Origin: an uncultured Actinomycetota bacterium
GTDB lineage: Bacteria; Actinomycetota; Actinomycetes; Streptosporangiales; Streptosporangiaceae
Direction: 5' to 3'
Assembly (NCBI GenBank): GCA_963727015.1
Contig: CAVSEV010000012.1
Span: forward strand, 214,131 to 278,130
DNA length: 64,000 nucleotides
Below, piece by piece: positions 24,695 to 60,299 of this stretch (within the stretch, counting starts at the first letter, position 1; every line of letters starts with the position of its first letter). Below the pieces are notes generated by a model. The model did no database searches. It saw nothing but the letters and a program-made list of their open reading frames with translations, and was not told the DNA's origin. Both the position numbers and the translations under genes were made by a program.

Positions 24695-25060
24695 TCAGCG
24701 GTGGTGATGATCGTGATCGCCGAAGTCACCGCGGTCACCGTGGTCGTGATCGCCGAAGCCACCGTGGTGATGATCGAAATCACCGAAGCCACCGTGGTGA
24801 TGATCGAAATCACCGAAGTCACCGTGGTGATGATCGAAATCACCGAAGTCACCGTGGTGGTCACACCAGTACACGTACGGCCAGTGGCCACACCAGTCGC
24901 GCCAGTGCTCGTGTACCTGAGCCGCATGGACGCTCTGCACAGCGGCGGGCTGGGTCGTTGCCGCACTTGCCATGGTGGACACGCTCATCGCGCCACCGAA
25001 GCCGAGCGCGACAATCGCGGCACTGGTGGCCGCGGCCCGCTTGAACAGCATTCTGGACAT
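24695..25060 (-). CDS. Small secreted histidine/aspartate-rich repeat protein (putative metal-binding)
   Basis: 121 aa. Signal peptide MSRMLFKRAAATSAAIVALGFGGAMSVSTMASA, then HEHWRDWCGHWPYVYWCDHHGDFGDFDHHHGDFGDFDHHHGGFGDFDHHHGGFGDHDHGDRGDFGDHDHHHR. Confidence 0.55.
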   Translation of the reverse strand: MSRMLFKRAAATSAAIVALGFGGAMSVSTMASAATTQPAAVQSVHAAQVHEHWRDWCGHWPYVYWCDHHGDFGDFDHHHGDFGDFDHHHGGFGDFDHHHGGFGDHDHGDRGDFGDHDHHHR

Positions 25061-25069
25061 AGGGTTCCG

Positions 25070-25215
25070 TCCCTTCTGTTATTGGCTGGGGATCCTCTAT
25101 TGGCTGGGGGATCCTCTATTGGCTGGGGACCCTCTATTGGCTGGGGACCCTCTATTGGCTGGGGATCCTCTATTGGCTGGGGATCCTCTATTGGCTGGAG
25201 ATCCTCGGGGTCATG
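25070..25215. repeat. 7 tandem copies of a 21-bp unit (CTATTGGCTGGGGATCCTCT) just upstream of the His-rich protein gene
   Basis: Near-perfect units differing only by G/A, T/C. Located in the promoter region of the minus-strand gene starting at 25060. Confidence 0.85.
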
Positions 25216-25632: not shown

Positions 25633-25725
25633 AGGGAAAACGTTGTCGCGGGAGGAAAACGTTGTCAAGAAAAAGGCTGCCCGGAAAACGTTGTCGGGAA
25701 ACGTTGTCGGAAATCGTTATCGAGG
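25633..25725. promoter_or_regulatory. AT-rich island with 5 direct repeats of GGAAAACGTTGTC (iteron-like)
   Basis: GGGAAAACGTTGTCgcgggaGGAAAACGTTGTCaagaaaaaggctgcccGGAAAACGTTGTCGGGAAACGTTGTCGGAAATCGTTATC. Local GC is far below the window average. Confidence 0.5.
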
Positions 25726-26066
25726 GATTTCCAAGACCACCTTGCGCGGGGGCATTACCGGGCGGGAGCGCAAAATGCCGCCCCCGGCCCTGGCATATGC
25801 TGGCCACAGCGGCCCGGCTGGCCTGGCCAGCGTGGCCAGCGTGGCCCCCGATCATCACATGCCAGGAACCGTCCCGGCCGACGAGGTTCAGCCGAGCTGG
25901 CTTGATCCCTCAACGGCGCCAGGATCACTGCGGCCGGTGGCACACAATGGCCCATCGTGTGCCAGATTTGACGCCCAATGGGCCATCGTGTGCCACCCGT
26001 GCCTCACCCGAGCGGCACACAGGGGCCGTCGCGTGCCAGATTCGGCAGATGATGGGGCCATGGGCG

Positions 26067-26100
26067 TGGCGCTGACAGCCCGCTAGCTAGCTAGCGGGCT
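26067..26100. terminator. 34-bp perfect palindrome (CTGACAGCCCGCTAGCTAGCTAGCGGGCTGTCAG) at the 3' end of the minus-strand operon
   Basis: Perfect dyad immediately downstream (on the minus strand) of the last operon ORF. No U-tract, so hairpin or I-shaped terminator or protein site. Confidence 0.4.
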
Positions 26101-26250
26101 GTCAGGCGAACAGCAGGAATCGCAAGAGTGCGACCAGAGCCACAAGGGCCAGCGCGAGCATTGCCTTGACGAACAAGCCCTGCTCGTACCTCACCGCTTC
26201 GCGGATCTCCTCAGCAAAGGACCGCGGCGGCCCATTGCAGGAAGCGCCGC

Positions 26251-27750
26251 TCACACCGGCGTCGCCGCCTTGCCAGTCTTCTCCGTCTTGTCCCATTTCA
26301 TCTCCGCCTTCCGCAACTCCTTCACATACGCGCTGCACGCGCAGGCGCAAAGCAACGGCCCATATCCGGCGACGTAGACAAGGGCGGGACTGATCATCTT
26401 GCCGAACCTGTGTGGCTCGGCCATCTTGGCGAGGTAGGCCGCGACCATGGATGCCGCGAGCCACACGTACACCAGCAGCATCACGGAGTGCACGTAGAGG
26501 GGCGTGGGGACGACGTGCAGCAGCCTGAACAGCTCACGCGTGGCCCACCGGCACAGGAGCGGAAAGCACGTGTAGACGATGACAGCGAGGTTCACGAGGC
26601 CAGGGAACAAGACCGCCTCCCGCCAGACCCGCCGTCCGGTCACGGGGTCGATGAGCAGCGAGAATGCCGTGATGAAGATGTAGGTGGCCGCATTCGTGAT
26701 CCACAGCACGTGGAACGTCCGCCATGCCAGCGGGAAGTTGCTGAAATACAGCGCGACCAGCGAGGCCGATGCCGTGATCATGAAAAAAGGGAGCAGGAAG
26801 ATGCAGAACCAGAACACGCCGAAGTTGATGCCGCCGAGATGGTGGCCGTTGCTGCGCCGGAACCACAGCCGCCGGAACCGCAGGGTGACCTGAAAGTTGC
26901 CACGGGCCCAGCGCAGCCGCTGCTTCCACAGGCCACCGATGGTGGACGGCTCCTCCGCCCATACCGTCGCGTGCGGCTCGAACACCACCCGCTGCCCCGC
27001 GATCTGGGTGTTGAACGTCGTGAAGGTGTCCTCGGCGAGTGAGGAGGTATCGATCCGGCCACCTAGCAGCACGAGGTTGGCCCGCGAGTGGAGCTGGGCA
27101 CCTCCGGCCAGGCAGGCGATGGCGCCGATGACGTTCTGGCTGCGCCGGGCTGCCGCCTGGGCGGTGATGTACTCGTAGCCGATGAAGCGGGTCAGGTAGT
27201 TGCCCGGCCGGCTGCCTTCCCTGATGTACGCGGTGACCGCGCCGACATTGCGGTCGGCGAGATGGCGGGTCATCTTCCGCAGCGTGTCGCGCTCGTAGAC
27301 GACGTCGGCGTCCATTATAAGCAGCGCCTGCATCCAGTTGTCGCCGAGGATGACAGACAGGCCATGGTTCAGGGTGTGGGCCTTGCCTTCGCCGCCATGC
27401 TCGCGGCGCAGGTGGACCACACGGCCCGGGTACCTGGCGGCCTTGGCGGCGACCACGTCGGGGGTGGCGTCCGTGCTCGCGTCGTCGACGACGAAGATCC
27501 GCAGGGCTTCCTCGGGATAGTCGAGCGACATCAGGTGATCGATCGAGTTGCCGACGACGGCGGCCTCGTTCCACGCCGGGATCAAGATGGCGGTCCGCGG
27601 GAAATAGGGCTCGCACTCGGCATAGTGGTTCCGCCTGAAATGGATCGCGACGAGCAGGAACTGCCAGCTCCCCGCGAGCTGCGGCCCGGCGGCGAGGATG
27701 ACGAAGGCGACGAGTACCCATTCGCCGCCTGTGCTGGCATCGTGACCCAC
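26251..27750 (-). CDS. Processive family-2 glycosyltransferase (PgaC/IcaA/NodC/cellulose-synthase-like beta-glycan synthase)
   Basis: N-terminal TM, then D,D,D,QxxRW motifs: ILIPAWNEAAVV...FVVDDASTD...LIMDADVV...QRLRWARG, then 4-5 C-terminal TM helices. Start taken at the GTG at 27750 (VGHDASTGGEWVLVAFVILAAG), 5 nt after the PHP gene stop. The listed ORF extends to 27963. Confidence 0.75.
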   Translation of the reverse strand: MGHDASTGGEWVLVAFVILAAGPQLAGSWQFLLVAIHFRRNHYAECEPYFPRTAILIPAWNEAAVVGNSIDHLMSLDYPEEALRIFVVDDASTDATPDVVAAKAARYPGRVVHLRREHGGEGKAHTLNHGLSVILGDNWMQALLIMDADVVYERDTLRKMTRHLADRNVGAVTAYIREGSRPGNYLTRFIGYEYITAQAAARRSQNVIGAIACLAGGAQLHSRANLVLLGGRIDTSSLAEDTFTTFNTQIAGQRVVFEPHATVWAEEPSTIGGLWKQRLRWARGNFQVTLRFRRLWFRRSNGHHLGGINFGVFWFCIFLLPFFMITASASLVALYFSNFPLAWRTFHVLWITNAATYIFITAFSLLIDPVTGRRVWREAVLFPGLVNLAVIVYTCFPLLCRWATRELFRLLHVVPTPLYVHSVMLLVYVWLAASMVAAYLAKMAEPHRFGKMISPALVYVAGYGPLLCACACSAYVKELRKAEMKWDKTEKTGKAATPV

Positions 27751-27755
27751 TCCGG

Positions 27756-28553
27756 TCAGGCTCCCTGCGGCGTGCCCGCGCTTCGCGGCGCGGCTTGGGC
27801 CGTGGATGGCGCGGCGCACAAGGTACCCGACGCGGCGCGCACCGTCTGGATGACCGAGTCGTACCCGGCGATGTCTGCGCAGTGGTGGCTGTCGCTGCCA
27901 GCAACCAGGCGCACGTCGGCCCGGGCGAGAGCGTCGACCGTGCGAGCCGATGGACATCTCCACTTCTCGTTTACCTCGACGAGCGCGCCCGCGCGTGCCG
28001 TCCGCTTAGCCAGGTGGCTGAGCAGCAACGGCGGAACCTGATCTTCGTTTAGGCCGATCTTGGGAAGCAGGCTGAACAGGTGCGCGACGAGGGCATGCTG
28101 CGCCGACGCGAGGGCATGCACGGTTGCCTCGACGAGGCATTCGATCGCCTCTTGCGCCGTCACGTCGCCGCTGCCGATCGCCGCGCGCATTTCGGCCGGG
28201 TGAACGGGGCCGCGGTCGGCGGGGAACCTGTGATCAGCGATCAGGAGAAGGTCGATACCGTCGGCAGCATCGAGGCAGCCGACGCCGGGGGGGACATCGA
28301 GCCGGCCTGAGGAGTCCAGAATCTTGGCCTCGAGGCCAGCCAGGACCCGGGGCAGGGAAAGGGACCGGTACACGGACACGGCCGCGACGAAATCGGGAAC
28401 CCACGCCGTGTCGCTGCGTACGTGGTCGGCCAGGCAGAGGGTGCGCAGCTGACGGTCGCGCGCGACCCGCACGTTCTGCGCCAGGGTGCTCGCACCGTCC
28501 GAGAACGTCGAATGGACGTGGTAATCCTCGTCGAGCTCGACACGGATAGTCAT
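27756..28553 (-). CDS. PHP-domain metal-dependent phosphoesterase (CpsB/histidinol-phosphatase-like)
   Basis: 265 aa. DYHVHSTFSDGAST, CLADHV, LLIADHRFP, LVAGSDSHH are PHP His/Asp metal ligands. Confidence 0.6.
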   Translation of the reverse strand: MTIRVELDEDYHVHSTFSDGASTLAQNVRVARDRQLRTLCLADHVRSDTAWVPDFVAAVSVYRSLSLPRVLAGLEAKILDSSGRLDVPPGVGCLDAADGIDLLLIADHRFPADRGPVHPAEMRAAIGSGDVTAQEAIECLVEATVHALASAQHALVAHLFSLLPKIGLNEDQVPPLLLSHLAKRTARAGALVEVNEKWRCPSARTVDALARADVRLVAGSDSHHCADIAGYDSVIQTVRAASGTLCAAPSTAQAAPRSAGTPQGA

Positions 28554-29560
28554 GTCGGCACCGGCTCGGCGGATTCGAGGACGTCGGCGAGCTCGACGAA
28601 GCGCTCATCGAGGAAGCGCACCACGGCAACTTCGCGGAAGCCGACGTGCGCGGGTACCGGCCTGCCGAGCAGCGCATCGAGGGCGAGCCTCGGCATGTCG
28701 ACCCCGCTCGCAATGGTCAGCGGAAGCGTCCCCGGCATCCGAGGGTTCACCTCGAGCAGCGCCGGGCAGCCCGCGCGGTCGCGCCTGCACTGGACGTTGG
28801 CGACATAGGTCAGGCCAGTGGCGCGGGCGACGTCGTGGCCGAACTTTTCGAGTTCGGCGTCGTGGACCGTCCGGCCGGCGATCGAGACACCGGAGTCGAC
28901 GCGCACCCTGATGCGCGGCACGGCCGCGATCACATGCCCGCGGCAGTCGGCGAGCACGTCGATGGAGTACTCCGCGCCAGGAAGGAATTCCTGAACGATC
29001 AGGTCCGCCGATCGTTCAATCGCGGCGAGCGCCGACGCGGACTCGACCGTCACGATGCCGCGAGATCCGCTGCCCGTGCGGGGCTTGACCACTACCGGAT
29101 AGGTCCAGGTGGCTGGTTCGACGGCGGAGCCGAACGGTTCGGTGCGCGGTACGTGGACGACGCCCGCGAGGTGCCTGGCGAGCGACAGCTTGTCGAGAGT
29201 GATGTCAAGCGCGCCAGCGGGTGCGAGCAGTAGCCCAATGCCTGCCGCCGCGAACGCCGCGCGGGCGGCGGCCAGCGGCCGCAGCTCAGCGTCGACGGTC
29301 GGCAGCACTATGCCCACTCCGAGTGCAACGCACCTAGCCAGCAGCGATTCGGCGAAATCCGGCGCGCAGCCCGCCGGGATCAGCGTCCGGGCGCCCTGCG
29401 GGACGAGGTAGAGGCCGGCGGCCCACCGATCCATGTCGGCCGCGACCAGCTCGATCGTTTCGTCGGCGCGCAGCGACTTCATGGCGCTGATCGCTGCGGG
29501 GCCGCCGGCGCCTGTGACCAGGACGCGCAGCCTGCGGCGACCACCGTAAGGCCTGCTCAC
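28550..29560 (-). CDS. ATP-grasp domain ligase
   Basis: 336 aa. PVVVKPRTGSGSRGI (P-loop-like Lys), LIVQEFLPGAEYSIDVL, LEVNPRMPGT (the E-x-N catalytic pair). Confidence 0.7.
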   Translation of the reverse strand: MSRPYGGRRRLRVLVTGAGGPAAISAMKSLRADETIELVAADMDRWAAGLYLVPQGARTLIPAGCAPDFAESLLARCVALGVGIVLPTVDAELRPLAAARAAFAAAGIGLLLAPAGALDITLDKLSLARHLAGVVHVPRTEPFGSAVEPATWTYPVVVKPRTGSGSRGIVTVESASALAAIERSADLIVQEFLPGAEYSIDVLADCRGHVIAAVPRIRVRVDSGVSIAGRTVHDAELEKFGHDVARATGLTYVANVQCRRDRAGCPALLEVNPRMPGTLPLTIASGVDMPRLALDALLGRPVPAHVGFREVAVVRFLDERFVELADVLESAEPVPT

Positions 29561-30705
29561 GTCCGGCCCGCCGCCTCCGGACCGGTGCGGGCCCGGCGCC
29601 CGGCTTGCGACCGGGCGCGCCTGGGCGAGCCAGGGTGATCGTCATTCGCTGGCCGGATGGCCGCGCGATCACGGATGGCCTCGAACGCCTCTGCGTGGTT
29701 TCCTTCGCAGAACCGTGACCAGTAGCGGGCAGTCGAGGCGATGAGGTCGGGTTCCAGGTAGTCGCGCACGGCGAACTGGGAGGCGAACATTTCGATGGCC
29801 TCGAGCTTGCGGCCAACGTGATTATCGATGGTCACGAAGTGCGTCGGGCGGAAGTCGACCGTGGCAGAAGGGGACTGGAAGCAGTAGACCCGCCCGATCC
29901 GCCGCGTCGCCACCATCGCCGCGCGGTGAGTGTTCCTGTGGTCCTGATGGACATCATGGATGGAATGGGTGTAGACGGTGGTCGGCTGAACCGCCGCGAT
30001 CACGTCATCGATCACCGCTATGGTGGGATTCCCCTCCCGGATGTGGGTGTCTTCGAGGTTCTCGAGAAAAAGGCGCGCGCCGATGAGGCCGGCCGCTTTC
30101 TCCGACTCGCCAGCGCGCTGCGCCTCTATGCCTCCGCCCGCGCCGTGGGACAGCGTCAAGATCGACACCGAGTCGCCCGCGGCCTGGTGAGCAAGCAGCG
30201 CGCCTGCCGCGCCGATCTCCACGTCGTCGGGGTGCGCGCCGATCGCAAGGACACTCTCGCTGCCGGTGGATCCCGCTATCCTGCCTCGCTCGACCAGCGT
30301 GGCCGCCGTGGCGATGAGATCGTCCGGACGGATGGGTTTCTGCAGGAACTCCGTGACGGGCATCCGCAGGGCCGTGACGGCTCGATCCACGGTCGCGTGG
30401 GCGGTGACCACGGCCACCGGCAAGGTGGGCCGGAGGCGGCGCACGCGCTCGACGAGCTCAAGCCCGGACAGGCCCGGCAGCTCGATGTCGGCGACCACCA
30501 GGTCCCACGGCTCGGTTTCGATGTACCGCAGCCCGGCAACCGGATCCAGCACGTGCCTGACCTCGAAACCACCCCGCACCCGCAGGACGAACGTGGCAAA
30601 CCGGCCGAACGCGGGATCGTCGTCGATCAGCAGAACCCGCGCACGAGCCGACATCCGCTCACTGGCTTGCATGTGCCCCCGCATCACCCGTTGCACACCA
30701 TGCAC
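29557..30705 (-). CDS. Response-regulator receiver (REC) domain fused to a PIG-L/LmbE-family N-deacetylase
   Basis: REC: VLLIDDDPAF...DLVVADIELPGLSGLEL...VAVVTAHA...FLQKP, with the phospho-acceptor Asp, Thr and Lys present. PIG-L: VLAIGAHPDDVEIGAAGALL...HSIHDVHQDH, Zn ligands. Confidence 0.75.
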   Translation of the reverse strand: MHGVQRVMRGHMQASERMSARARVLLIDDDPAFGRFATFVLRVRGGFEVRHVLDPVAGLRYIETEPWDLVVADIELPGLSGLELVERVRRLRPTLPVAVVTAHATVDRAVTALRMPVTEFLQKPIRPDDLIATAATLVERGRIAGSTGSESVLAIGAHPDDVEIGAAGALLAHQAAGDSVSILTLSHGAGGGIEAQRAGESEKAAGLIGARLFLENLEDTHIREGNPTIAVIDDVIAAVQPTTVYTHSIHDVHQDHRNTHRAAMVATRRIGRVYCFQSPSATVDFRPTHFVTIDNHVGRKLEAIEMFASQFAVRDYLEPDLIASTARYWSRFCEGNHAEAFEAIRDRAAIRPANDDHPGSPRRARSQAGRRARTGPEAAGRT

Positions 30706-30742
30706 AAAGATACCAGTCAGCCATCACAGAGTGTCTGATCGA

Positions 30743-33259
30743 TTACTTTAAGTGTGATTCAGTCTGCCCGGCGGCACTTTCGGCCGTGCCCGCCGAGTCG
30801 CCGGCCGAGTCGTCCGCCGGGCCGGCTGGCGGGCCGCCCGCTGGGGCGCCAGCGGTCCTGCCCTTCCATACGCCGCCGCGCCCGGCCCGGTACTGGCGGG
30901 CTGAGTCGAGGGTCATCGCGGCGTACATGAGCGCGACAACCGGCAGCGCCGCCGCACGCAGCGGCGAGAGCCGGTAAAGCCGCAGCACGGGCAGGTAGGT
31001 GACCGCCATGATCAACCAGCCCGCTAGGCCGGAGACGGCGCACCACAACGCGGGCGGGCCACCACCCGCCGCCACGCCGGTCAAGCCAGCGAGCGCCGCG
31101 ACCGGTGGGATCAGGTAGAACCACAGCAGGCCCACGATCGTGCAGCCGAGCAGGGCCGGCGAGTAGCGCAGCTGGTAGTAGGCACTGCGGGTGACCATTT
31201 GCCACAGTTCTGCGAGCCGGGGGTAGGGGCGACGGCTGACGACGGCCGTGCTGAATCCCAGCCAGCACCTGCCGCGCCCGGGCGAACGCTTGATCAGGTG
31301 CCCGAGCGCGACGTCGTCGATCAACGCGCCGCTGATCTGCCGCATCCCGCCCGCGGCCGCGAGCGCCTGACGGCGCACCAGCATGCAGCCCCCGGCCGCC
31401 GCGGCGGTCCGCCCGCCCGGCCGGTTCACCCGCCTGAACGGGTAAAGCTGAGCGAAGAAGTAGACGAACGCGGGCACCAGGGCACGCTCCCAGGCGGTCT
31501 CGGCGCGTAGCAGCGCCATTTGCGAGACCAGGTCGCGCTCATCGCCCACCGCGGCGGTCATCAATGCCGTGAGCGTCCCCTGCCTGTAGGCGATGTCGGC
31601 GTCGGTGAACAGCACGTACTCACTGTCGGGCGCCGCACGGATACCTTGCTCCATGGCCCACACCTTGCCTGCCCAGCCGGCTGGGCGGCGCTCTCCAGCT
31701 ACCACGCGCAGCGGCCGCCGGTGCGGGCCGGCGAGCGCGGCTGCCACCCGGGCCGTGCCGTCAGTGCTGCGATCATCCACCACCAGTACCTCGAGCTTGC
31801 CCGGATAGTCCTGTGCGAGCAGGGTCGGCAGGGTGGCAGGCAGGATCTCGGCCTCGTCGCGCGCGGGGACGACCGCGACGACCGCGGGCCAGCGCGCCGC
31901 GTCCTCGCCGTGCGCGCGCGCCACGTCCACGCCGTCGCGCCCGCCGCGGCGGCGGGGCAGGCGCTGGCCGGTCCGCCAGTAGCCGCCGTGCGCCACCAGC
32001 AGGTATATCCAGGCGACGGCCGCGACGACAGCGGCAGCGGCGAGAACGGGCACCACGCTGCTAGTTAGCGCCTGTCCCGCCGGTCGGGGGGCGCGGCCGG
32101 CCGGTCCCGCAGGTGCGGCCGGCCGGTCGGGGGGCGCGGCCGGCAGGCGGCCGGGGCCCGGGGCGGCTGGCCGCTCGGGTGAGGCGGCGAGGTTCTTCTT
32201 GACCAGATCGAGAATGGTCACGCCCTGGGCGACAAGACCGGCGGCTATCTCACCGAGGCCATCGGAGCCGTTCAGCACGCTCAGGTTGGCGCCGGCCAGA
32301 CCGCCCGCAGCCTCCTTGACGATCTGCGGCAACTGGTCGATGAGCATCCGGTCGAGCGCGACGCGATCGTAGGACGCTGCCGCCTCGGCCTGAACCTTCA
32401 TCCGCTCCGCCTCGGCCTGAGCGAGGATGCGCACCCGCTCAGCGTCCGCTTGCGCGGGCTTCACGACCTCAGCGACCAGTTGCTGCTGGCGCAACTCGGC
32501 CTGACGCTGCGCAAGTTCGGTCTGCGCCGCGATGACCGCGCGCTGGGTGTCCGCCTGGGCGAGCGGACCGGCCTGCGCCGCCTCGGCCTGCGCCTTGTCC
32601 ACCTCCGCCTTGTACTGGGCCTGCACGACAGCCGTCTGGCGCGCATACTCCGCCTGCTTGCGCTGTGACTCCTGCTCGGCCTCGGCCGCCGCCTGGTTGG
32701 CCTGGGCCTGCGCGATCTTCGCCTGCCGCTGGATGGCCGAGACATGCGGGGCGGCCATCGCATCGATGTAGCCGGTCCCCATGTCGTCGATGGACTGGAT
32801 CTGCAGCGAGTCGACGATCAGGCCGATCTTGGCCATCTCGGCCTTCGAGCCATCCAGCACCTCGGTCGCGAGCTTCTGCCGCTCGGTGACGATCTCCTCG
32901 ACGGTCATCGAGCCGATGATCGAGCGCAGGTGCCCGGCGAAGATCCGCCCGGTCAGCACCGACATCTGATCCTGATCGGACAGGAACCGTTGTCCCGCGT
33001 TGACGATGCTCTCCTCGTCGTTGCCGACCTTGAAGGCGATAACAGAACGGACATTCACCGAAATGCCCTGGCCGGTGACGCAGGTTTCCGCGACCTCGGC
33101 CTCACACATGGCCAGGGTCAGGAAGCTTGCCTTGCGGAAGCCGGGGACAACGAAGGCACCATGGCCGGTGACGACCCGGAATGGTGTGCCGTCGCGGCCA
33201 CGCCTGCCGCCGGCGATCAGCATGGCTTCGTCGGGTGCGGGCACGCGGTAACCAAACAT
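30743..33259 (-). CDS. SPFH/band-7 (flotillin-like) domain fused through a Pro/Ala linker and TM helix to a GT2 glycosyltransferase domain
   Basis: 838-aa single ORF. Residues about 1-380 are SPFH plus a flotillin-type coiled coil (KIAQAQANQAAAEAEQESQRKQAEYARQTAVVQAQYKAEVDKAQAEAAQ). Then PERPAAPGPGRLPAAPPDRPAAPAGPAGRAPRPAG, a TM, then GT2 (VVAVVPARDE...VLVVDDRSTDGT...GWAGKVWA...FTDADIAY) and C-terminal TMs. Confidence 0.65.
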   Translation of the reverse strand: MFGYRVPAPDEAMLIAGGRRGRDGTPFRVVTGHGAFVVPGFRKASFLTLAMCEAEVAETCVTGQGISVNVRSVIAFKVGNDEESIVNAGQRFLSDQDQMSVLTGRIFAGHLRSIIGSMTVEEIVTERQKLATEVLDGSKAEMAKIGLIVDSLQIQSIDDMGTGYIDAMAAPHVSAIQRQAKIAQAQANQAAAEAEQESQRKQAEYARQTAVVQAQYKAEVDKAQAEAAQAGPLAQADTQRAVIAAQTELAQRQAELRQQQLVAEVVKPAQADAERVRILAQAEAERMKVQAEAAASYDRVALDRMLIDQLPQIVKEAAGGLAGANLSVLNGSDGLGEIAAGLVAQGVTILDLVKKNLAASPERPAAPGPGRLPAAPPDRPAAPAGPAGRAPRPAGQALTSSVVPVLAAAAVVAAVAWIYLLVAHGGYWRTGQRLPRRRGGRDGVDVARAHGEDAARWPAVVAVVPARDEAEILPATLPTLLAQDYPGKLEVLVVDDRSTDGTARVAAALAGPHRRPLRVVAGERRPAGWAGKVWAMEQGIRAAPDSEYVLFTDADIAYRQGTLTALMTAAVGDERDLVSQMALLRAETAWERALVPAFVYFFAQLYPFRRVNRPGGRTAAAAGGCMLVRRQALAAAGGMRQISGALIDDVALGHLIKRSPGRGRCWLGFSTAVVSRRPYPRLAELWQMVTRSAYYQLRYSPALLGCTIVGLLWFYLIPPVAALAGLTGVAAGGGPPALWCAVSGLAGWLIMAVTYLPVLRLYRLSPLRAAALPVVALMYAAMTLDSARQYRAGRGGVWKGRTAGAPAGGPPAGPADDSAGDSAGTAESAAGQTESHLK

Positions 33260-33269
33260 CTCTCATCTC

Positions 33270-33563
33270 CTAGGTAGCGGCATCGGGGGTAGCATCCATA
33301 GGGCCTGCCCACTCGATCACGTCGACGGTCCGCGCGCCACGGGAGTCGATGACCAGCACGGTCGCGCCCTTCTGGAGCGGTTTGTCCGACCACGCCAGGA
33401 ACGCCTCCGAGCCGCCGCGAATCTTGATGAGTACTTCCCCCGGGCCTGCGGAGCCGCGGGTACCGATGATGAGAACGCCCACGGCGCCTATTGCCGCCTC
33501 ATCCCGAGCCACCGGCCGTCTACCCCTTCGCGCGTCGCGGATCTGGGGCCCAAGACTATCCAC
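33270..33563 (-). CDS. NfeD-like OB-fold protein (partner of SPFH/flotillin proteins)
   Basis: 97 aa. IGAVGVLIIGTRGSAGPGEVLIKIRGGSEAFLAWSDKPLQKGATVLVIDSRGARTVDV matches the NfeD C-terminal beta-barrel. Sits directly upstream of the SPFH gene (10-nt gap), as in the yuaF-floT / nfeD-floA operons. Confidence 0.55.
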   Translation of the reverse strand: MDSLGPQIRDARRGRRPVARDEAAIGAVGVLIIGTRGSAGPGEVLIKIRGGSEAFLAWSDKPLQKGATVLVIDSRGARTVDVIEWAGPMDATPDAAT

Positions 33564-34519: not shown

Positions 34520-34630
34520 CCATTCTTACCCAATCCCTCCTGTGTTACCCAATCCCTCCTGCCCCGGCCCAATCCCTCCTGCCCCGGCCCAATACCCTCC
34601 TGCCCCAGCCCAATCCCTCCTGCCCCGGCT
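34520..34630. repeat. About 5 tandem copies of a 21-bp unit (CCCAATCCCTCCTGCCCCGGC) in the AKR promoter region
   Basis: Four near-perfect units plus one degenerate unit immediately upstream of the AKR start. Confidence 0.8.
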
Positions 34631-36002: not shown

Positions 36003-36155
36003 CAGGGCCCGGGCTCGCACGGCAGGGGCCGAGCGGCGCCCGGTCAAAGCCTGTCCCGGCACCGTCCCGTTGGACCCAGGCCAGCCGAGCCGGCCTGGTC
36101 CCTTCGGGGCTTCCAGATCACCTACGGCCGGTGCCACCTCAGGCCCATGCGGCTG

Positions 36156-37009
36156 TCAGCCGCGGCGGGCGCTTGGGTCGCGGCGCCCAAGCGGCCCGTG
36201 CGCGGGGCCGGACCGGGCGCGTGAAAGGGCCAGTATCCGCGCCGCGGCAATTGCCTCGGCCGCGAGCGGGAGCGTGACGGCGACCCGCTGCACGGTCCCG
36301 TTCCACGGCTCAAGCACCCCCGACGCGAACAGCACCAGTGCCGCACCGCTGACCAGAGCGAGCCCGAGGAGGATCGGACACACGGCCGCCCAGCCGGGTT
36401 CGGTGCGCAAGCGCCGCGACAGCGCGATCGGCGCCGCGATCATCGCGGTGTAGGCGACACCGCTGACCAGGTCATGCCCCTGGTTGTGCCACGACTCACC
36501 CGCGAAGCCCGGGCCGGCGAGCAGCATGTGGTCGCGGCGCAGCAGGCCAGCGGCGACGGCCGCCGCGCCCGCGGCCATGACGAGCCATGGCCCCGCGGCC
36601 GCGGCCAGCAGGCCGCCGACGGCGCGCCGCCTGCCGCCAGCCCTGGGCTGCCGGCAGGCGGCACCGGCCAGCCACTGGCCCAGGGCGCCGCCGAACACTA
36701 TTCGCCGGCCCCGAGCGCCACGAATCCGGCAATCATGATCTGCGGATCACGCGCGTCGATCGCTGCGAGCCCGCTGAGCTGCACCTCCGCCGCGGGATGG
36801 CCGCTCTGCCGCAGGGAACTAACCACCCATGCCGCGGTGAACAAGGCGGGGCCTGCCAGCCCGCACAAGGCGCAGAACCGCACGCCGCGCGGCGACGCGA
36901 TAAGCACCGCGACGTCACGCAGCGGCGCCAAATGCAGCGACGCCCAACGCCTTCTGGTGAGATGGGACCCGGTCATGATCGCGGATGCGCACCTTCCGCC
37001 GGCGGGCAC
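36156..37009 (-). pseudogene. Hypothetical membrane protein split into two adjacent frames (36698..37009 and 36156..36698, shared CACTA junction); possible frameshift
   Basis: Both parts are hydrophobic (AVLIASPRGVRFCALCGLAGPALFTAAWVV; LVMAAGAAAVAAGLL; AVCPILLGLALVSGAALVLFASGVL). A stop and a GTG start overlap by 1 nt. Confidence 0.3.
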
Positions 37010-56523: not shown

Positions 56524-57714
56524 TCAGTCTTGCTTCGCCGACGCGGCCTTCTGCAGCTGATCTTGGTTCTCATCAACAGGGTCAGCAGTGCCCTCGCTGC
56601 CAGGAGTGTCAATGCGGTCCATGATCAGGATCACCCCGTGGATCATCCCGTCCTCGCCGCGGAGCAGGCTGCACGCCACCCGCAGCTGCACAGGCCGGCC
56701 CCGCCGGTTGACGGCGTCGACTGTCGCATCACTGCCCTCTGCCCGCTCGGTAAGCATCCGCTGTAGCAGCGGCACGATCTGCTGCACAGGCAGGCCGATA
56801 TCGAGCGTGAGCAGGTGCCTGCCGTCCGCCTCGTCCGCGCGAAGCCCCCACAGCTCCTCGGCGCCTGGGCTCCACACCCGCACCCGCAGATCCTCATTCA
56901 CCACGATGACCGCGCTGCCAAGGCTGCGAAGCACGGAGCCGAGAAATCCGTTCGCCGCGTCGAGCTGCTCGGTCCGCACGCGCAACACGTCGTTGATCGC
57001 CTGCAGCTCGTCGTTAGTCGACTGCAGTTCCTCGTTCATCGTCTCGAGTTCCTCGTTAGTGGACTGCAGTTCCTCGTTTGTGGTCTCGAGTTCCTCGTTA
57101 GTGGACTGCAGTTCCTCGTTGGTCGTCTCCAGCTCCTCGTTCAGCGACTGCAGCTCTTCGTAGGCCCGCTCGAGATCCTGGTTGGAGCGCTCAAGTTCGT
57201 CCCGCAGCCTGCGGTTACGTGTCACGTCGACGAAGCTGATCCCGACGCCGACCAGTTCGTCCGCGTCGCTCACGAGCGGGACGACCGCGACGTCGAGCAC
57301 CGCGGGCTCTGCGCCCAGGCCTCGGTGCCAGGTCACGTCGGTCAGCTCGACGGCGCGCTTGTCCTTCTTCACCTGTTCGATCACCGACCGGAGCTCTATC
57401 GGGCGGTACGAGACCTCGAGATCTTGAAACAGCCTGCCCACATCGCGCGCGTGCAGGTTAAACAGGTTCCCGGCGCGAACGTTGACCACCGCGAGCTTGC
57501 CCGCCTGGTCTATTGCGAACTGCGCGACGGGCCCGGCGGCAAGCGCCGCGGCCTCGAGCCCGGCTGGGGCCGAACTGCTCGTCGGTGCCGTACTGCGCCG
57601 CTGCCCGCGGGACGTCGCCCGGGCCCACGCCCGGAATCTTACGGAACAGGCGCTTGCGCAGGTCGACCGGTTCGAACCGGTCGCCGTGATTGAGCAGCAT
57701 CTCGGCCTTGCCAA
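56524..57714 (-). CDS. PAS, coiled-coil (EELQSTNEELETTNEEL heptads), PAS protein; 5' end overlaps the CheR gene by about 250 nt (possible frameshifted CheR-PAS fusion)
   Basis: PAS1 from about 57570 (LAAGPVAQFAIDQAGKLAVVNVRAGNLFNLHARDVGRLFQDL). Then NEELQS/NEELET repeats, then PAS2 (LRSLGSAVIVVNEDLRVRVWSPGAEELWGL). No start codon between the CheR stop (57458) and PAS1 except the ORF start at 57714. Confidence 0.6.
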   Translation of the reverse strand: MARPRCCSITATGSNRSTCASACSVRFRAWARATSRGQRRSTAPTSSSAPAGLEAAALAAGPVAQFAIDQAGKLAVVNVRAGNLFNLHARDVGRLFQDLEVSYRPIELRSVIEQVKKDKRAVELTDVTWHRGLGAEPAVLDVAVVPLVSDADELVGVGISFVDVTRNRRLRDELERSNQDLERAYEELQSLNEELETTNEELQSTNEELETTNEELQSTNEELETMNEELQSTNDELQAINDVLRVRTEQLDAANGFLGSVLRSLGSAVIVVNEDLRVRVWSPGAEELWGLRADEADGRHLLTLDIGLPVQQIVPLLQRMLTERAEGSDATVDAVNRRGRPVQLRVACSLLRGEDGMIHGVILIMDRIDTPGSEGTADPVDENQDQLQKAASAKQD

Positions 57715-58474
57715 GGAAGAGGTAACCCTGGCTGGTCAGCGCGAAGTGGAACTTGCGGATGACGTTCGCCTGCGCTTCTGCGGTGAAATACATAAGCGTG
57801 TTGCGCGCGACAAGCAGGTCGACGCGCGAGATCGGGGCATCCCTGGTCAGGTCGTTGCGGCCGAATATTACCTGCCTACGCAGGTCGCGGCGGAATGAGT
57901 ACCGCGTCCCCGCGGGTTCGAAGTACTTTTCCCTAAGCTCGTCAGGAACCTCGGCGACCTGCCGCTCCGTATACGTTCCCGCGCGTGCCTGCTGAAGGGC
58001 ATCCTCGTCGAGATCAGTGGCGTAGATTTTCGCTCGGTGGCTGAAACCCTCGGGTCCAAGCGCCTCGGCGAACAGGATCGCCAGCGTGTATGCCTCCTCA
58101 CCAGTGGCGCAGCCCGCGCTCCAGATCCGGATGGGCCTTGCGGTTCCTTTCGTGGCCAGCAACTGGGGCAGTATCTCGTCGCGCAGCGCTTCCCAAGCGG
58201 GCGGGTCGCGGAAAAAGCCGGTCACATTGATGAGGACGCTGTCGAAGAGTCTCCCGAACTCATCCGGTTCCAATTCGAGGTAATCGCGGTACTCGCCGAC
58301 CGACTGCAGTCCGCGCGCGTCCATCCGGCGGCTGATCCGCCGCTGCAGCGTTGATCTCTTGTAACCGGTGAAGTCGAATCCGCGGGTCTCCTTGAGCATC
58401 AAAAGGAGTTCGTCGAAATCGTGGTCCACGTCGCCCGGCACGTCGGTAAGCGTACGCCGGCCAGTTCGCGTCAC
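57458..58474 (-). CDS. CheR-type protein-glutamate O-methyltransferase
   Basis: ELLLMLKETRGFDFTGYKRSTLQRRISRRM (CheR N-domain), IRIWSAGCATGEEAYTLAILF (SAM-binding). The last about 45 aa (GVGPGDVPRAAAQ...) look out of frame or non-native. Confidence 0.8.
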   Translation of the reverse strand: MTRTGRRTLTDVPGDVDHDFDELLLMLKETRGFDFTGYKRSTLQRRISRRMDARGLQSVGEYRDYLELEPDEFGRLFDSVLINVTGFFRDPPAWEALRDEILPQLLATKGTARPIRIWSAGCATGEEAYTLAILFAEALGPEGFSHRAKIYATDLDEDALQQARAGTYTERQVAEVPDELREKYFEPAGTRYSFRRDLRRQVIFGRNDLTRDAPISRVDLLVARNTLMYFTAEAQANVIRKFHFALTSQGYLFLGKAEMLLNHGDRFEPVDLRKRLFRKIPGVGPGDVPRAAAQYGTDEQFGPSRARGRGACRRARRAVRNRPGGQARGGQRSRREPV

Positions 58475-58542
58475 ACACCCCGGACCTACGCACCGGCGCT
58501 ACCACCCGCTTGGGTCCTGCGAAGACCTGCCGTTTGCCGTTG

Positions 58543-59688
58543 TCAAGCGTTCTCTGCGTCGTCTGTGTGCTCAGCGTTACCTGTCGCGCCTTTGGCAGCT
58601 ACGTTATCTGTGTTATCTGTGTTATTGGTGCTTCTCGCGTTATCTGCGTTCTTCGCGTTATCTGTGTTCTTCGCGTTGTCCGTGTTTTTCGCGTTGTCTG
58701 CGCTTTCCGTGCTTGGCGGCGGGGCTTGCGACGCTCGGCTGGCCTGCGCCGCGTCCCGAGCCTGGTCGGCAGCCTTCCTGAAGGTCGCCGCGGAGACCCA
58801 GTACCCTCTGCGCTCGGCCGATTCTGCCAGTTCCCTAGTGAGCCGCGAGCGTTCTTCCAGGCGCAATGTGGCCGACGACCTGGCGCGCTCGACCGCGGCC
58901 GAGCGCTCGCCGGAAAGGCGCGCGGGCGACCACGAATGGCCGGACCCGCACTCGTAACTCAGCGGTGCGGCGCCGTGCTTGTCGCTGCGTAACGGCCCAC
59001 CGCAGTCGGGACAAGTGAGGCCGGTCGCCGCACCGGCGGCAGGCGGCGGATTGAGGAGTACGGCGACGTAGCGCTCGAGCTCAGGGTCTGCCGGCTGCGT
59101 GACAGGCTCAACCGGGATGCGGCATTGCTCGTCGAGGAATTGGGCGATCTGGCGGATCTTGAGGACAGCCGCCCGCGTGGTCACGGCGAGCGCGGCCCGT
59201 GGCATTCCGGTGTACGGGCTCTCCGCTGGGTCTTGGATGGCGACCATCCCGTCGTGCCGCTCAATAGCGGCACAGCCCACGGCGCCGTCGTCAAGCGTGC
59301 CGCTCAGCACCACACCAATGACGCGCGGCCCCTGTGCGAGCGCGGAGCTGCGGAACAGCGGATCAGCCGCGGGACGGTGCCCGTGCTGCGGCGGGCCAGC
59401 GGACAACCGGACCTGGTCGCCGACCACAAGCATGTGCCTGTCCGGCGGGGCAATGTAAAGCCGGCCCGGGCGCAGTTCCTCGCCATCGACCGCCGCGCCG
59501 GCCCGCAGACGACCGGCCCTGTTCATGATCCTTGGCAGCGCACGGCCGCCTGTTGCCGGGACGTGCAAGATGATGAGGATGGGCGAGGGAAAGTCGGCGG
59601 GAAGGCGGGAAAGCAGCGCCTGCAACGCCTCTATGCCACCTGCTGACGCGGCGACCACCACGGTCCTGCGTCCGAGGTTCGATCCCAT
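58543..59688 (-). CDS. CheB-type methylesterase domain protein (no receiver domain) with a C-terminal Cys/His zinc-ribbon-like region and an (ADNAKNTDN)n tail
   Basis: From MGSNLGRRTVVVAASAGGIEALQ...ILIILHVPA...DGMVAIQD (the CheB Ser-His-Asp catalytic region), then CPDCGGPL...YECGSGHSWS. Tail encoded by 18-nt repeats (58590-58700). Confidence 0.75.
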   Translation of the reverse strand: MGSNLGRRTVVVAASAGGIEALQALLSRLPADFPSPILIILHVPATGGRALPRIMNRAGRLRAGAAVDGEELRPGRLYIAPPDRHMLVVGDQVRLSAGPPQHGHRPAADPLFRSSALAQGPRVIGVVLSGTLDDGAVGCAAIERHDGMVAIQDPAESPYTGMPRAALAVTTRAAVLKIRQIAQFLDEQCRIPVEPVTQPADPELERYVAVLLNPPPAAGAATGLTCPDCGGPLRSDKHGAAPLSYECGSGHSWSPARLSGERSAAVERARSSATLRLEERSRLTRELAESAERRGYWVSAATFRKAADQARDAAQASRASQAPPPSTESADNAKNTDNAKNTDNAKNADNARSTNNTDNTDNVAAKGATGNAEHTDDAENA

Positions 59689-59762
59689 CTTCGGCTCACA
59701 CTCTCTATGGCCATCCTTCAGCTGGGGCCATGCACGCCCGACGGCGCTGTCGGGCGCACATC

Positions 59763-60299
59763 TCAATCATCGCCGATCGGCGGAATGCCTGGCGCGGGGT
59801 CCTGCTCACCAAGCGCACCCGCGGCTTCGCGCTCCGCCACAGCCCAGCCGCGATGCATGCGGGCCCTTTCGCCGTATACGGCGCTTCCGCTGACGCCGCT
59901 GATCGCAAGTTCCTCGAGCTTGGCGGCGGTGCGATCGTGGGCAACCGCGGCGCGAAGGTGTGCGGACGCACTTCGGTCAGCCGCCTCGCTCGCGCGCTCC
60001 TGCGCGAGGCGCACGTAGTGCGCCGCACGGCCAACCTGCTCGGGCGTCGAACCCTTGCCCATCCGGGCGTCTTCCATCCGCTGGTTACGCTCATGCAGAT
60101 CACGAATGCGGTCGTCAATCTGCAGCGCCCGCAACCGGACGTGCTTGGCGGCATCAACCGCGCGGCCCGCGCCGTCGCCTCGTTCAGCGCCGTCGCGTTC
60201 TTGAGCGCAGCCGCGTTTTTGAGCGCCGCCGCGTTTCTGTGCGCGGTCGCCTCGTTCAGCGCCGTCGCCTGGTTCAGCGCGCTCGGCACCATGCATTAG
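59763..60299 (-). CDS. Hypothetical coiled-coil protein with an N-terminal repeat region
   Basis: ...RAVDAAKHVRLRALQIDDRIRDLHERNQRMEDARMGKGSTPEQVGRAAHYVRLAQERASEAADRSASAHLRAAV. Plus-strand alternative (59730..60299) judged less protein-like. Weak call. Confidence 0.3.
   Translation of the reverse strand, partial: LMHGAERAEPGDGAERGDRAQKRGGAQKRGCAQERDGAERGDGAGRAVDAAKHVRLRALQIDDRIRDLHERNQRMEDARMGKGSTPEQVGRAAHYVRLAQERASEAADRSASAHLRAAVAHDRTAAKLEELAISGVSGSAVYGERARMHRGWAVAEREAAGALGEQDPAPGIPPIGDD

Follow-up and report, generated by a model that had tools for sequence, protein, structure and literature searches.

We examined a window of 64,000 nucleotides (nt) from an uncultured actinomycetote of the family Streptosporangiaceae (contig CAVSEV010000012.1), in which a row of open reading frames (ORFs), all co-directional, occupies the minus strand at 33563-26102. 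A preliminary description had read these genes as one operon-level system making a glycan confined to flotillin microdomains. Our results show that the region splits into two modules. Module A (33512-30743) encodes an NfeD-like protein and, in one continuous ORF of 838 amino acids (aa), a flotillin-like SPFH/Band_7 part followed by a family 2 glycosyltransferase (GT2) of the HpnB family. Module B (30672-26102) is a cassette encoding a receiver domain fused to a PIG-L deacetylase (REC::PIG-L), an ATP-grasp ligase, a PHP-family phosphoesterase, a second, membrane-bound GT2 and a small membrane protein. We think it probable that the two modules are independent neighbours and that Module B makes a glycan by a synthase-dependent route, under two-component control and with tailoring enzymes in the cytoplasm.

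The independence of the modules is seen in the way that the cassette is conserved. Using a REC::PIG-L profile, we retrieved 80 loci from species-representative genomes and searched them by tblastn with all of the window proteins. The PIG-L, ATP-grasp, PHP and GT2 genes were complete and collinear in 35 of the 80 loci across the Actinomycetota, among them loci from Streptosporangiales, Trebonia, Blastococcus, Microbacteriaceae (Microbacterium, Leucobacter and Rhodoglobus), Cellulomonas, Conexibacter/Solirubrobacterales, Acidimicrobiia, Miltoncostaea and Frankiaceae. The cassette was present in rearranged form in seven more loci, from Legionella, Marinicella, Vicinamibacteria, Polyangiaceae and Rhodospirillales, so that Acidobacteriota, Myxococcota and Alphaproteobacteria are also represented. 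In all 80 loci, tblastn found no flotillin, NfeD-like gene or true HpnB within 10 kb; the sole 'HpnB' matches were weak and fell on the cassette GT2 by cross-similarity. When the flanking ORFs were clustered all against all, no further family was conserved in more than nine loci. Conversely, two contigs (L001 and L003) have the three genes of Module A (NfeD-like, flotillin and HpnB) but no cassette, and three others (L006-L008) carry the cassette alone. The full six-gene order, with the modules adjacent, was present only in the narrow lineage of the window (L005, L009-L013 and L097), and the cassette alone is widespread. The cassette is conserved as a unit and independently of flotillin.

These observations leave little room for the proposed single system comprising all of the genes, with a de-N-acetylated, aminoacylated glycan being made in flotillin microdomains and the fused ORF tethering its synthesis to the raft scaffold. 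It is true that all of the genes lie on the same strand with a continuous ORF in the window, that their order is kept in seven related contigs and that no terminator was detected between the modules. However, the cassette occurs in at least 35 loci without a flotillin within 10 kb, and L001 and L003 hold flotillin and HpnB genes without the cassette. We regard a single system as very unlikely.

The enzymes encoded by Module B look active, to judge from their invariant catalytic residues. The first gene matches both Response_reg (80.8 bits) and PIG-L (PF02585; 80.2 bits against a cut-off of 28.2), and the preliminary description was correct in assigning the deacetylase its own phospho-acceptor receiver. 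The protein belongs to a family of 2334 homologues, most of them 65-75% identical and of the same architecture, whose public names are generic ('response regulator HydG' or 'LmbE family deacetylase'). The receiver residues D28/D29/D30, D73, T101 and K123-P124 were invariant in 20 homologues, as were, in 20 sequences, the PIG-L motifs AHPDD (157-161) and H253-Q254-D255-H256 (the HxDH zinc/catalytic motif). Taken alone, the PIG-L domain had BshB1 as its nearest model (76.5 bits, cut-off 182.5; BshB2, 23 against 195), and NCBIfam returned no MshB or Mca match for it.

The next two genes each overlap their predecessor by 4 nt. The ATP-grasp assignment was sound, with scores of 111 bits for ATPgrasp_Ter and 54 bits for ATP-grasp_3; the PRK12767 'carbamoyl phosphate synthase-like' models remained below their cut-offs. 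In a profile search the nearest solved structure was 2pn1 (E 3e-44), followed by carbamoyl phosphate synthase, VanA/Ddl and L-amino-acid ligase. Residues invariant in 19 orthologues include K159, E197, E270, N272 and R274, that is, the conserved Lys and the E-x-N Mg ligands. The phosphoesterase matches PHP (PF02811) at 30.1 bits against a cut-off of 26.4, and its metal-ligand set (H14, D19, H44, E75, H108, H158, D221 and H223) was invariant in 17 orthologues, with H12 nearly so. The PHP domain had previously been thought to be of the CpsB type. That part of the assignment falls away, as no CpsB model or structure was among the matches in NCBIfam or in a profile search of the Protein Data Bank (PDB), in which the nearest solved relatives were YcdX (1m65; 2e-9), PolX PHP domains and HisJ-type histidinol phosphatases. 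In two loci (L064 and L068) a gene of the histidine-phosphatase superfamily (His_Phos_1) replaces PHP at the same position, and this displacement indicates that a phosphatase step is intrinsic to the pathway. Hydropathy indicates that the PIG-L, ATP-grasp and PHP proteins are soluble and cytoplasmic.

The fourth gene encodes a GT2 that scores 109 bits with Glyco_tranf_2_3. The processive signature reported earlier was found in full (DD92, DAD150, ED243 and QRLRW280), together with ~5 C-terminal transmembrane (TM) segments and an N-terminal hydrophobic stretch that is visible by eye and falls below the scan threshold. Among solved structures it comes closest to 6yv7 (a minimal cellulose-synthase-like GT2 from an archaeon), BcsA and hyaluronan synthase, and the similarity to the latter two reaches into the first TM region. 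The scores against equivalog models were 135.9 bits for PgaC_IcaA (cut-off 422.3), 80 for NodC (550) and 56.5 for CelA (699). By motif and TM set, this enzyme is likely to be a processive-type synthase. The inventory of six genes in the preliminary description was incomplete, missing a 50-aa gene (26102-26254) that overlaps the GT2 stop codon by 4 nt (GTGA) and whose product has a charged helix ahead of a C-terminal TM segment. A small ORF of the same design, with an invariant Glu in the charged helix, overlaps the GT2 stop or adjoins it in ~35 cassette loci from many families; it is annotated as a 64-67-aa gene in L005, L010 and L097, and in two Legionella loci (L055 and L064) the motif is fused to the C terminus of the GT2. 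We regard this protein as a synthase subunit. In four of the rearranged loci from diderm bacteria (L055, L064, L047 and L068), the GT2 gene is directly followed by one for a tetratricopeptide repeat (TPR) protein of 445-1034 aa, with a signal peptide and an aromatic C terminus like that of outer-membrane proteins. By analogy with PgaA and BcsC, an arrangement of this kind, with a porin-like C terminus, is typical of synthase-dependent exopolysaccharide export.

There is also a genomic link to histidine kinases. Genes with HisKA/HATPase domains were present within ~6 kb in ~36 of ~50 cassette loci, and often encoded a CHASE3-type hybrid kinase; these recurrent hybrid kinases are candidate phosphodonors for REC::PIG-L. 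In the window itself, three kinase queries and a domain scan found no histidine kinase within the 64 kb, so the receiver is an orphan there. The partner kinase anticipated by the preliminary description is thus absent from this window and present beside most cassettes elsewhere. Searching the window for a kinase or a hopanoid cluster gave housekeeping genes (aroC, aroB, hisG, ribBA, rpe, rsmB, fmt, priA and metK). The sole signalling genes seen encode a PAS-domain protein and a CheB-methylesterase-domain protein at 56524-59766 on the minus strand, ~26 kb from the cassette. In L006-L008 and L014-L017, CHASE3-HAMP-PAS hybrid histidine kinases are encoded next to the cassette (~14.4-17.5 kb), and in L047 (2217-6147) a CHASE3 kinase and a hybrid kinase-REC-Hpt protein (three REC domains, GAF and Hpt) are inserted inside the cassette.

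We propose that the GT2 and its small partner would form a synthase/translocon for a beta-linked, probably N-acetylhexosamine (HexNAc)-based glycan; a HexNAc backbone is the best guess because of the similarity to PgaC and NodC. In the diderm homologue loci the synthase would be coupled to the outer-membrane TPR protein with its porin-like C terminus. The three soluble enzymes would act in the cytoplasm on an N-acetylglucosamine (GlcNAc)-type donor, a primer, or a lipid- or small-molecule-linked intermediate: the PIG-L domain may remove the N-acetyl group from a GlcNAc-type substrate, the ATP-grasp ligase may form an amide bond at the expense of ATP, and the phosphatase may take a phosphate off one of the partners. 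Phosphorylation of D73 of the receiver would gate the deacetylase, by a histidine kinase encoded beside the cassette in most other genomes and presumably elsewhere in this one. In this scheme we infer the sugar, the substrates of the soluble enzymes, the order of the steps and the direction of regulation.

Several points weigh against this interpretation of Module B or against the separation of the modules. Some cassette loci lack a recognisable receiver domain (L067, L069, L064 and L068), and two (L028 and L029) have no detectable GT2 within 10 kb. The proximity of histidine kinases was scored by tblastn with three kinase queries and not against a formal background model. The identity of the sugar is suggested by a similarity below threshold (PgaC, 136 against 422 bits). 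Synthase-dependent polymers are normally modified outside the cytoplasm, and three soluble cytoplasmic tailoring enzymes fit poorly with this pattern; by analogy with mycothiol, bacillithiol, glycosylphosphatidylinositol and Nod factors, such enzymes would fit small-molecule or lipid-linked chemistry equally well. Modules A and B may also be co-transcribed, as the gap of 70 nt lies on the same strand and no terminator was detected in it, and the adjacency, which is kept in all seven contigs of the lineage, may possibly reflect a lineage-specific functional link.

A related alternative is that Module B makes a low-molecular-weight or lipid-anchored glucosamine (GlcN) conjugate by the step logic of mycothiol (MshA, MshA2, MshB and MshC), bacillithiol, or GlcN-phosphatidylinositol and Nod factor synthesis. 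Its four enzyme classes match the established Msh/Bsh pathways one for one, the PIG-L domain is nearest to BshB1, the three tailoring enzymes are soluble and cytoplasmic, and the phosphatase step is conserved through non-orthologous displacement. However, the transferase is a multi-TM GT2 with a QxxRW motif rather than a soluble GT4, it has a dedicated small membrane subunit, the secreted TPR protein with a porin-like tail that follows it in diderm loci is a hallmark of polymer export, and no homologue of the Cys ligase was found in Pfam or NCBIfam. We therefore consider such a product unlikely, though less so than a single system, and retain a secreted glycan as the preferred product of Module B.

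Module A begins with a gene of 80 codons, 10 nt upstream of the flotillin, an arrangement shared with L005, L010-L013 and L097. The preliminary description had called its product a cognate NfeD; the adjacency and, weakly, the OB fold agree with this name, whereas a match to an NfeD model and the expected TM region are missing. The ORF has no Pfam or NCBIfam match even at E<=10, and a hydropathy scan shows no TM segment, N-terminal or otherwise, in the 80 residues. Among its 1691 homologues of ~80 aa, a few are named by JGI 'membrane protein implicated in regulation of membrane protease activity'. A profile search of the PDB gave YuaF (2k14; E 0.046) and NfeD (2exd; E 0.66), and AF2 modelled the protein as a barrel of five strands (pLDDT 73), for which the top Foldseek match is 3wwv, the C-domain of the Pyrococcus horikoshii stomatin operon partner (PH1510-C; TM-scores 0.58/0.70); QmcA-YbbJ (8z5g) and 2exd are also among the matches, with weak scores. 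Fold and profile similarity thus point weakly to an NfeD-like protein. The other domain searches agreed with the earlier assignments, returning Band_7, GT2, Response_reg, PIG-L, ATP-grasp and PHP, all with scores that exceed the curated Pfam thresholds.

The flotillin part of the 838-aa ORF contains Band_7 (PF01145) at residues 22-188 (74 bits against a cut-off of 23.6). It scores 23.3 bits with Flot (PF15975; cut-off 27) and 142-146 bits with FloT (NF058507; equivalog cut-off 700), and is 95-99% identical to the separate flotillins of 382-383 aa in L005 and L010. A Kyte-Doolittle scan found no hydrophobic segment in residues 1-400 and hence no N-terminal TM anchor; in this the N terminus resembles that of the TM-less eukaryotic flotillins.

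The GT2 part of the same ORF is of a different kind from the synthase in Module B. Glycos_transf_2 lies above its curated cut-off at residues 463-633, and the HpnB model TIGR03469 scores 456.4 bits against a cut-off of 379.25 over profile positions 2-383 of 386; the score with CruG is 96 bits. The QxxRW motif is absent, this part starts with a TM helix of its own (residues 405-423), and an internal GTG corresponds to the codon at which HpnB begins in relatives. With 48% identity, the HpnB half matches an HpnB::squalene-synthase (HpnB::HpnC) fusion protein (P0090) encoded within an hpnA-(B::C)-D-E-shc-hpnG cluster. Natural fusions of this kind, of a GT2 and a squalene/phytoene synthase, were seen in complete clusters of that order at L094 (10001-12040) and L095 (1365-3404), and proteins of ~680 aa resembling HpnB::HpnC are common among the HpnB matches. 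The occurrence of the HpnB::HpnC fusion in an hpn/shc cluster ties HpnB to an early squalene-linked step. The HpnB family is linked to hopanoid lipids, sitting in hopanoid gene clusters in other bacteria, and not to polymer synthesis.

It is tentatively possible, as an attractive hypothesis restricted to this lineage, that Module A is a functional pair, in which the HpnB-like GT2 glycosylates a polyisoprenoid lipid of the hopanoid or carotenoid type, the product forming microdomains with flotillin and the NfeD-like protein, and that Module B is unrelated to it. The score above the curated HpnB cut-off, the similarity to CruG and the 48% identity to a bona fide HpnB inside an shc cluster are consistent with this. 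So is the adjacency of flotillin and HpnB, which is kept with a gap of ~12-200 nt in L003, L005, L009-L013 and L097; in L001, which is ridden with frameshifts, the two coding regions have the same order. Bacterial flotillin microdomains are reported to be enriched in polyisoprenoid lipids (PMC10434171). On the other hand, the ORFs scanned in the 64-kb window include no hopanoid or squalene genes (SQHop_cyclase, SQS_PSY and HpnH-type were not found), and in L004 and L096, whose HpnB orthologues are closer (61-65% identity), the neighbours are uvrC, gcvP and cupin genes, with neither flotillin nor hpn genes beside them. The flotillin of L002 has no HpnB neighbour, and HpnB has no established function (PMC12583986). 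A literature search for links between flotillins, hopanoids and glycosyltransferases gave no relevant description. If the pairing is real, the flotillin-HpnB adjacency would be a modest genetic handle on the role of HpnB and on the lipids that accompany bacterial flotillins.

The fused ORF itself is unique to the window. When the 838-aa sequence was compared with 5.8 billion proteins, all matches were to separate proteins (flotillins of ~460 aa and HpnB of ~465 aa), and among the best 150 matches of a phmmer search of 1.84 billion representative proteins none spans both halves, the longer ones being HpnB::squalene-synthase fusions. One protein of 856 aa (P0114) was considered as a second fusion and rejected, as the flotillin fragment alone matches it. 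An exact look-up of the 838-aa product returned no record; a different start had probably been chosen in the source annotation. The genes are separate in every relative with a readable junction. In L009 (97% nt identity) the flotillin, incomplete on the contig, ends in TAG, and 12 nt separate this stop from the GTG of an HpnB of 438 aa. L097 (96% nt identity) has the same gap of 12 nt between a flotillin of 411 aa and an HpnB of 422 aa. In L005, where REC::PIG-L is 84% identical at the amino acid level, a gap of 32 nt separates proteins of 382 and 404 aa, and in L010-L013 (87%) an ORF of 57 aa lies between proteins of 383 and 428 aa. The preliminary description was right that Band_7 and GT2 share one continuous ORF, but the fusion is not a conserved architecture. 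As a singleton, it is not usable as evidence for one.

Alignment of the window with L009 shows how the fusion arose. There is a 22-nt insertion at ~32093-32114, a change of TAG to TAA and a 1-nt deletion in the 12-nt spacer; since the extra repeat unit adds one nucleotide to the frame and the spacer loses one (net +21 nt), the ancestral flotillin stop, now TAA at 32065-32067, is out of frame and bypassed, and the frame rejoins HpnB. The tail of the flotillin (32054-32140; L097 4560-4650) consists of a variable-number 21-nt repeat encoding DRPAAPP, of which L097 has four copies (then a stop, 12 nt and GTG), L009 about two and the window one aberrant copy of 22 nt. This tail is hypervariable and prone to slippage, whereas the rest of the protein is 95-99% conserved. 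The fusion is also topologically awkward, as ~400 cytoplasmic residues precede the TM helix of HpnB, for which the Arg-rich loop that follows it would, by the positive-inside rule, predict an N-out orientation.

The fusion may stem from an error of sequencing or assembly, or it may be a strain variant of very recent origin that is possibly without function; flotillin and HpnB would then really be expressed as separate proteins. This is somewhat doubtful but deserves consideration. The absence of the fusion from relatives with a readable junction (including contigs of 96-97% nt identity) and from the best 150 matches among 1.84 billion sequences would be explained, the junction falls in a GC-rich variable repeat that readily gives rise to slippage and mis-assembly, sibling long-read metagenome contigs (L001, L003, L006 and L008) are rich in frameshifts, the GTG start of HpnB is still in frame, and the predicted topological conflict would disappear. 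However, restoration of the frame needs two compensating changes (+1 and -1), which are unlikely to arise by random error, and so the event may be real. The other window genes that were compared with L005 and L010 are intact, and a nearby frameshift is common to the independent contig L097. That frameshift lies in a DUF998 gene (~36141-37003, minus strand), which, compared with L010, has lost 1 nt and acquired an in-frame TAG near 36700; because L097 has the same lesion, this is a genuine pseudogene in the species and not an assembly error. The suggestion that the window is generally as error-ridden as the sibling long-read contigs was accordingly unsupported. Under either explanation the fusion is not a conserved architecture. 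Three of its features also weigh against a single system: it is absent from relatives with a readable junction, its GT2 is of the HpnB family and not the polymer synthase, and a cytoplasmic domain of 400 aa precedes a TM helix predicted to be N-out.

The features of both modules are collected in Table 1. The longest ORFs in the region differ in places from the genes as we place them: the fused ORF extends over 30743-33259, REC::PIG-L over 29557-30705 and the cassette GT2 over 26251-27759. We place the start of REC::PIG-L at 30672 because its homologues have 371 aa, and this gives a spacer of 70 nt after the HpnB stop (30743) in place of the 37 nt left by the longest ORF. The other junctions measure +10, -4, -4 and +5 nt, the last with the GTG at 27750 as the start of the cassette GT2. 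The gaps of -4 to +10 nt reported earlier for co-directional genes are therefore right for most junctions and wrong for that between HpnB and REC::PIG-L. The spacer between the modules measures 70 nt in L005 and L097 and 75 nt in L010-L013, and is a possible site of an internal promoter; a consensus promoter scan of 25.4-34 kb found no promoter, in the spacer or elsewhere. A terminator scan of the same interval gave terminator-like sites at chance level and none between the modules.

Table 1. Features of Modules A and B in the window
Feature	Positions	Strand	Basis
NfeD-like OB-fold protein, 80 aa (Module A)	33270..33512	-	profile and fold match
Flotillin part (SPFH/Band_7), residues 1-383 of the 838-aa ORF (Module A)	32111..33259	-	Band_7
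Fusion junction, Pro/Ala-rich flotillin tail with variable 21-nt repeat	32054..32110	-	alignment with L009 and L097
HpnB-family GT2 part of the 838-aa ORF (Module A)	30743..32053	-	TIGR03469
Spacer between the modules, 70 nt, relatively AT-rich	30673..30742	-	sequence reading
REC::PIG-L, 371 aa (Module B, gene 1)	29557..30672	-	Response_reg and PIG-L
ATP-grasp ligase, 336 aa (Module B, gene 2)	28550..29560	-	ATPgrasp_Ter and ATP-grasp_3
PHP-family metal phosphoesterase, 265 aa (Module B, gene 3)	27756..28553	-	PHP
Cellulose-synthase-like membrane GT2, 499 aa (Module B, gene 4)	26251..27750	-	Glyco_tranf_2_3
Tail-anchored membrane protein, 50 aa (Module B, gene 5)	26102..26254	-	hydropathy and conservation
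Perfect palindrome, 34 bp, overlapping the gene 5 stop codon	26072..26105		inverted-repeat search

The palindrome at the end of the cassette is present as first described, with 17+17 nt that are 100% complementary. Its RNA is predicted to fold into a 15-bp stem with a minimum free energy of -38.8 kcal/mol (z -5.5; equalled by 0 of 200 shuffles), and it is likely to be a factor-independent terminator hairpin without a U-tract. A search of 22-38 kb with Rfam gave no match. The preliminary description had also named an AT-rich, iteron-bearing island as a boundary of the operon. The window has a GC content of ~70%, which does fall to ~0.62 past the palindrome, and repeats are present; the island lies downstream of the 3' end of the cassette. 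The supposed iterons are 5-6 copies of the unit GGAAAACGTTGTC at 25635-25727, spaced 13-19 nt apart, and a motif of ~20 nt of the GGCCCATCGTGTGCCA type occurs in three copies at 25936-26042, including an imperfect inverted repeat of 29 nt. Because both kinds of repeat are downstream of the cassette, they more likely serve a neighbouring gene.

Further repeats were seen on either side of the modules. An ORF of 121 aa (24695-25060, minus strand) has a signal-peptide-like N terminus and a C-terminal His/Asp-rich repeat, HHGDFGDFDH, in ~5 copies, encoded by a 30-nt tandem array at 24701-24859; from its sequence the product is probably a secreted metal-binding protein. Directly upstream of the start of this ORF are seven tandem copies (95% matches) of the 18-nt unit TATTGGCTGGGGATCCTC at 25080-25206, a region that aligns with L097 at 94% identity. 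On the other side, four tandem copies of the 20-nt unit CCCAATCCCTCCTGCCCCGG at 34548-34629 lie between an aldo/keto reductase gene and divergent DUF6412/YidC genes, and inflate the apparent N terminus of the aldo/keto reductase ORF.

Module B is a compact cassette found across several phyla, including the culturable Microbacterium, Leifsonia, Blastococcus, Conexibacter and Legionella, and it is generic in public annotation. As the preliminary description had supposed, we found no pathway of this composition, and no paper on the cassette, in the full-text literature covered by our search; the amidoligase survey of Iyer et al. (2009), which is perhaps relevant to the ATP-grasp context, falls outside that coverage. 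If our interpretation is true, Module B would represent a new type of synthase-dependent glycan system, in which a tailoring enzyme is regulated by direct phosphorylation rather than by cyclic di-GMP (c-di-GMP) and the chemistry is a cytoplasmic de-N-acetylation followed by ATP-dependent re-acylation. This would be relevant to the biofilm matrix, the actinobacterial envelope and the diversity of response-regulator outputs, and it is testable in existing strains. A bolder version, to which we give very little credence, is that Module B defines a new class of two-component-gated exopolysaccharide systems of the synthase-dependent kind, in which the cytoplasmic deacetylase, ligase and phosphatase replace the N-acetyl group of a hexosamine by another acyl or aminoacyl group, either ahead of polymerisation or in the course of it, coupled in this lineage to microdomains of glycosylated polyisoprenoids, with the fused ORF as a Rosetta-stone snapshot of that coupling.

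Comparison with known systems places each module beside several relatives. Module A resembles the flotillin-NfeD operons (FloT/YuaG-YuaF, QmcA-YbbJ and PH1511-PH1510) in having an SPFH/Band_7 protein with a flotillin-like coiled-coil region and, 10 nt upstream, a small gene whose modelled product matches the C-terminal OB domains of NfeD proteins. It differs in that neither protein has a predicted TM anchor, the small protein has no NfeD match in Pfam, the FloT score is low (142 against 700) and a GT2 of the HpnB type lies downstream, a pairing for which we found no description in the literature.

The genes of hopanoid glycosylation (HpnB; HpnI, HpnK and HpnJ) are also similar in part, in that the GT2 half scores above the TIGR03469 cut-off and is 48% identical to an HpnB from an hpn/shc cluster, and the succession of a GT2 and a GlcNAc deacetylase recalls the logic of HpnI and HpnK (PMC12583986). 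However, there are no shc or hpn genes in the window, the HpnI model scores 48.6 bits against a cut-off of 310, and the deacetylase here belongs to a separately inherited cassette. HpnK is a member of the YdjC family and is not known to belong to PIG-L, and hence the likeness is one of logic and not of homology. The idea that HpnB and PIG-L are a known hopanoid pair was dropped, as no HpnK model matched the PIG-L domain, and only the analogy was retained.

The mycothiol and bacillithiol pathways (MshA-A2-B-C and BshA-B-C) share with Module B a glycosyltransferase, a phosphatase, a GlcNAc deacetylase of the PIG-L family, for which BshB1 is the nearest relative, and an ATP-dependent ligase. They differ in using a soluble GT4 (MshA or BshA) where Module B has a membrane GT2 synthase, and a Cys-tRNA-synthetase-like MshC or BshC where Module B has an ATP-grasp ligase. 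Moreover, BshB1 and BshB2 score below their cut-offs and MshB and Mca do not match, and Module B has export components (the small TM partner and the TPR proteins), which suggest that its product is secreted.

The poly-N-acetylglucosamine systems PgaABCD and IcaADBC offer another comparison. They share a D,D,D,QxxRW GT2, for which PgaC/IcaA is the best family similarity, a small membrane partner beside the synthase that is comparable to PgaD/IcaD in role, a de-N-acetylase in the locus and, in the four rearranged diderm loci, a TPR protein with a porin-like C terminus like PgaA. The GT2 of Module B nevertheless falls well below the PgaC/IcaA equivalog cut-off. Pga and Ica use a secreted CE4 enzyme (PgaB or IcaB), while in Module B the deacetylase is cytoplasmic, belongs to the PIG-L/LmbE family and is joined to a receiver, and the ATP-grasp ligase and the phosphatase have no Pga/Ica counterpart. 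Control also differs, being by c-di-GMP in Pga/Ica and, as we propose, by two-component phosphorylation in Module B, where no PilZ, GGDEF or MshEN domain was seen.

Lastly, the REC::PIG-L protein can be compared with the enzymatic response regulators of the CheB, PleD, RpfG and RssB types. Its output is a zinc deacetylase of the PIG-L/LmbE family, and we found no paper on an output domain of this kind. As in those regulators, a canonical receiver is fused N-terminally to an enzyme domain, and histidine kinases are genomically linked to it in most REC::PIG-L loci.

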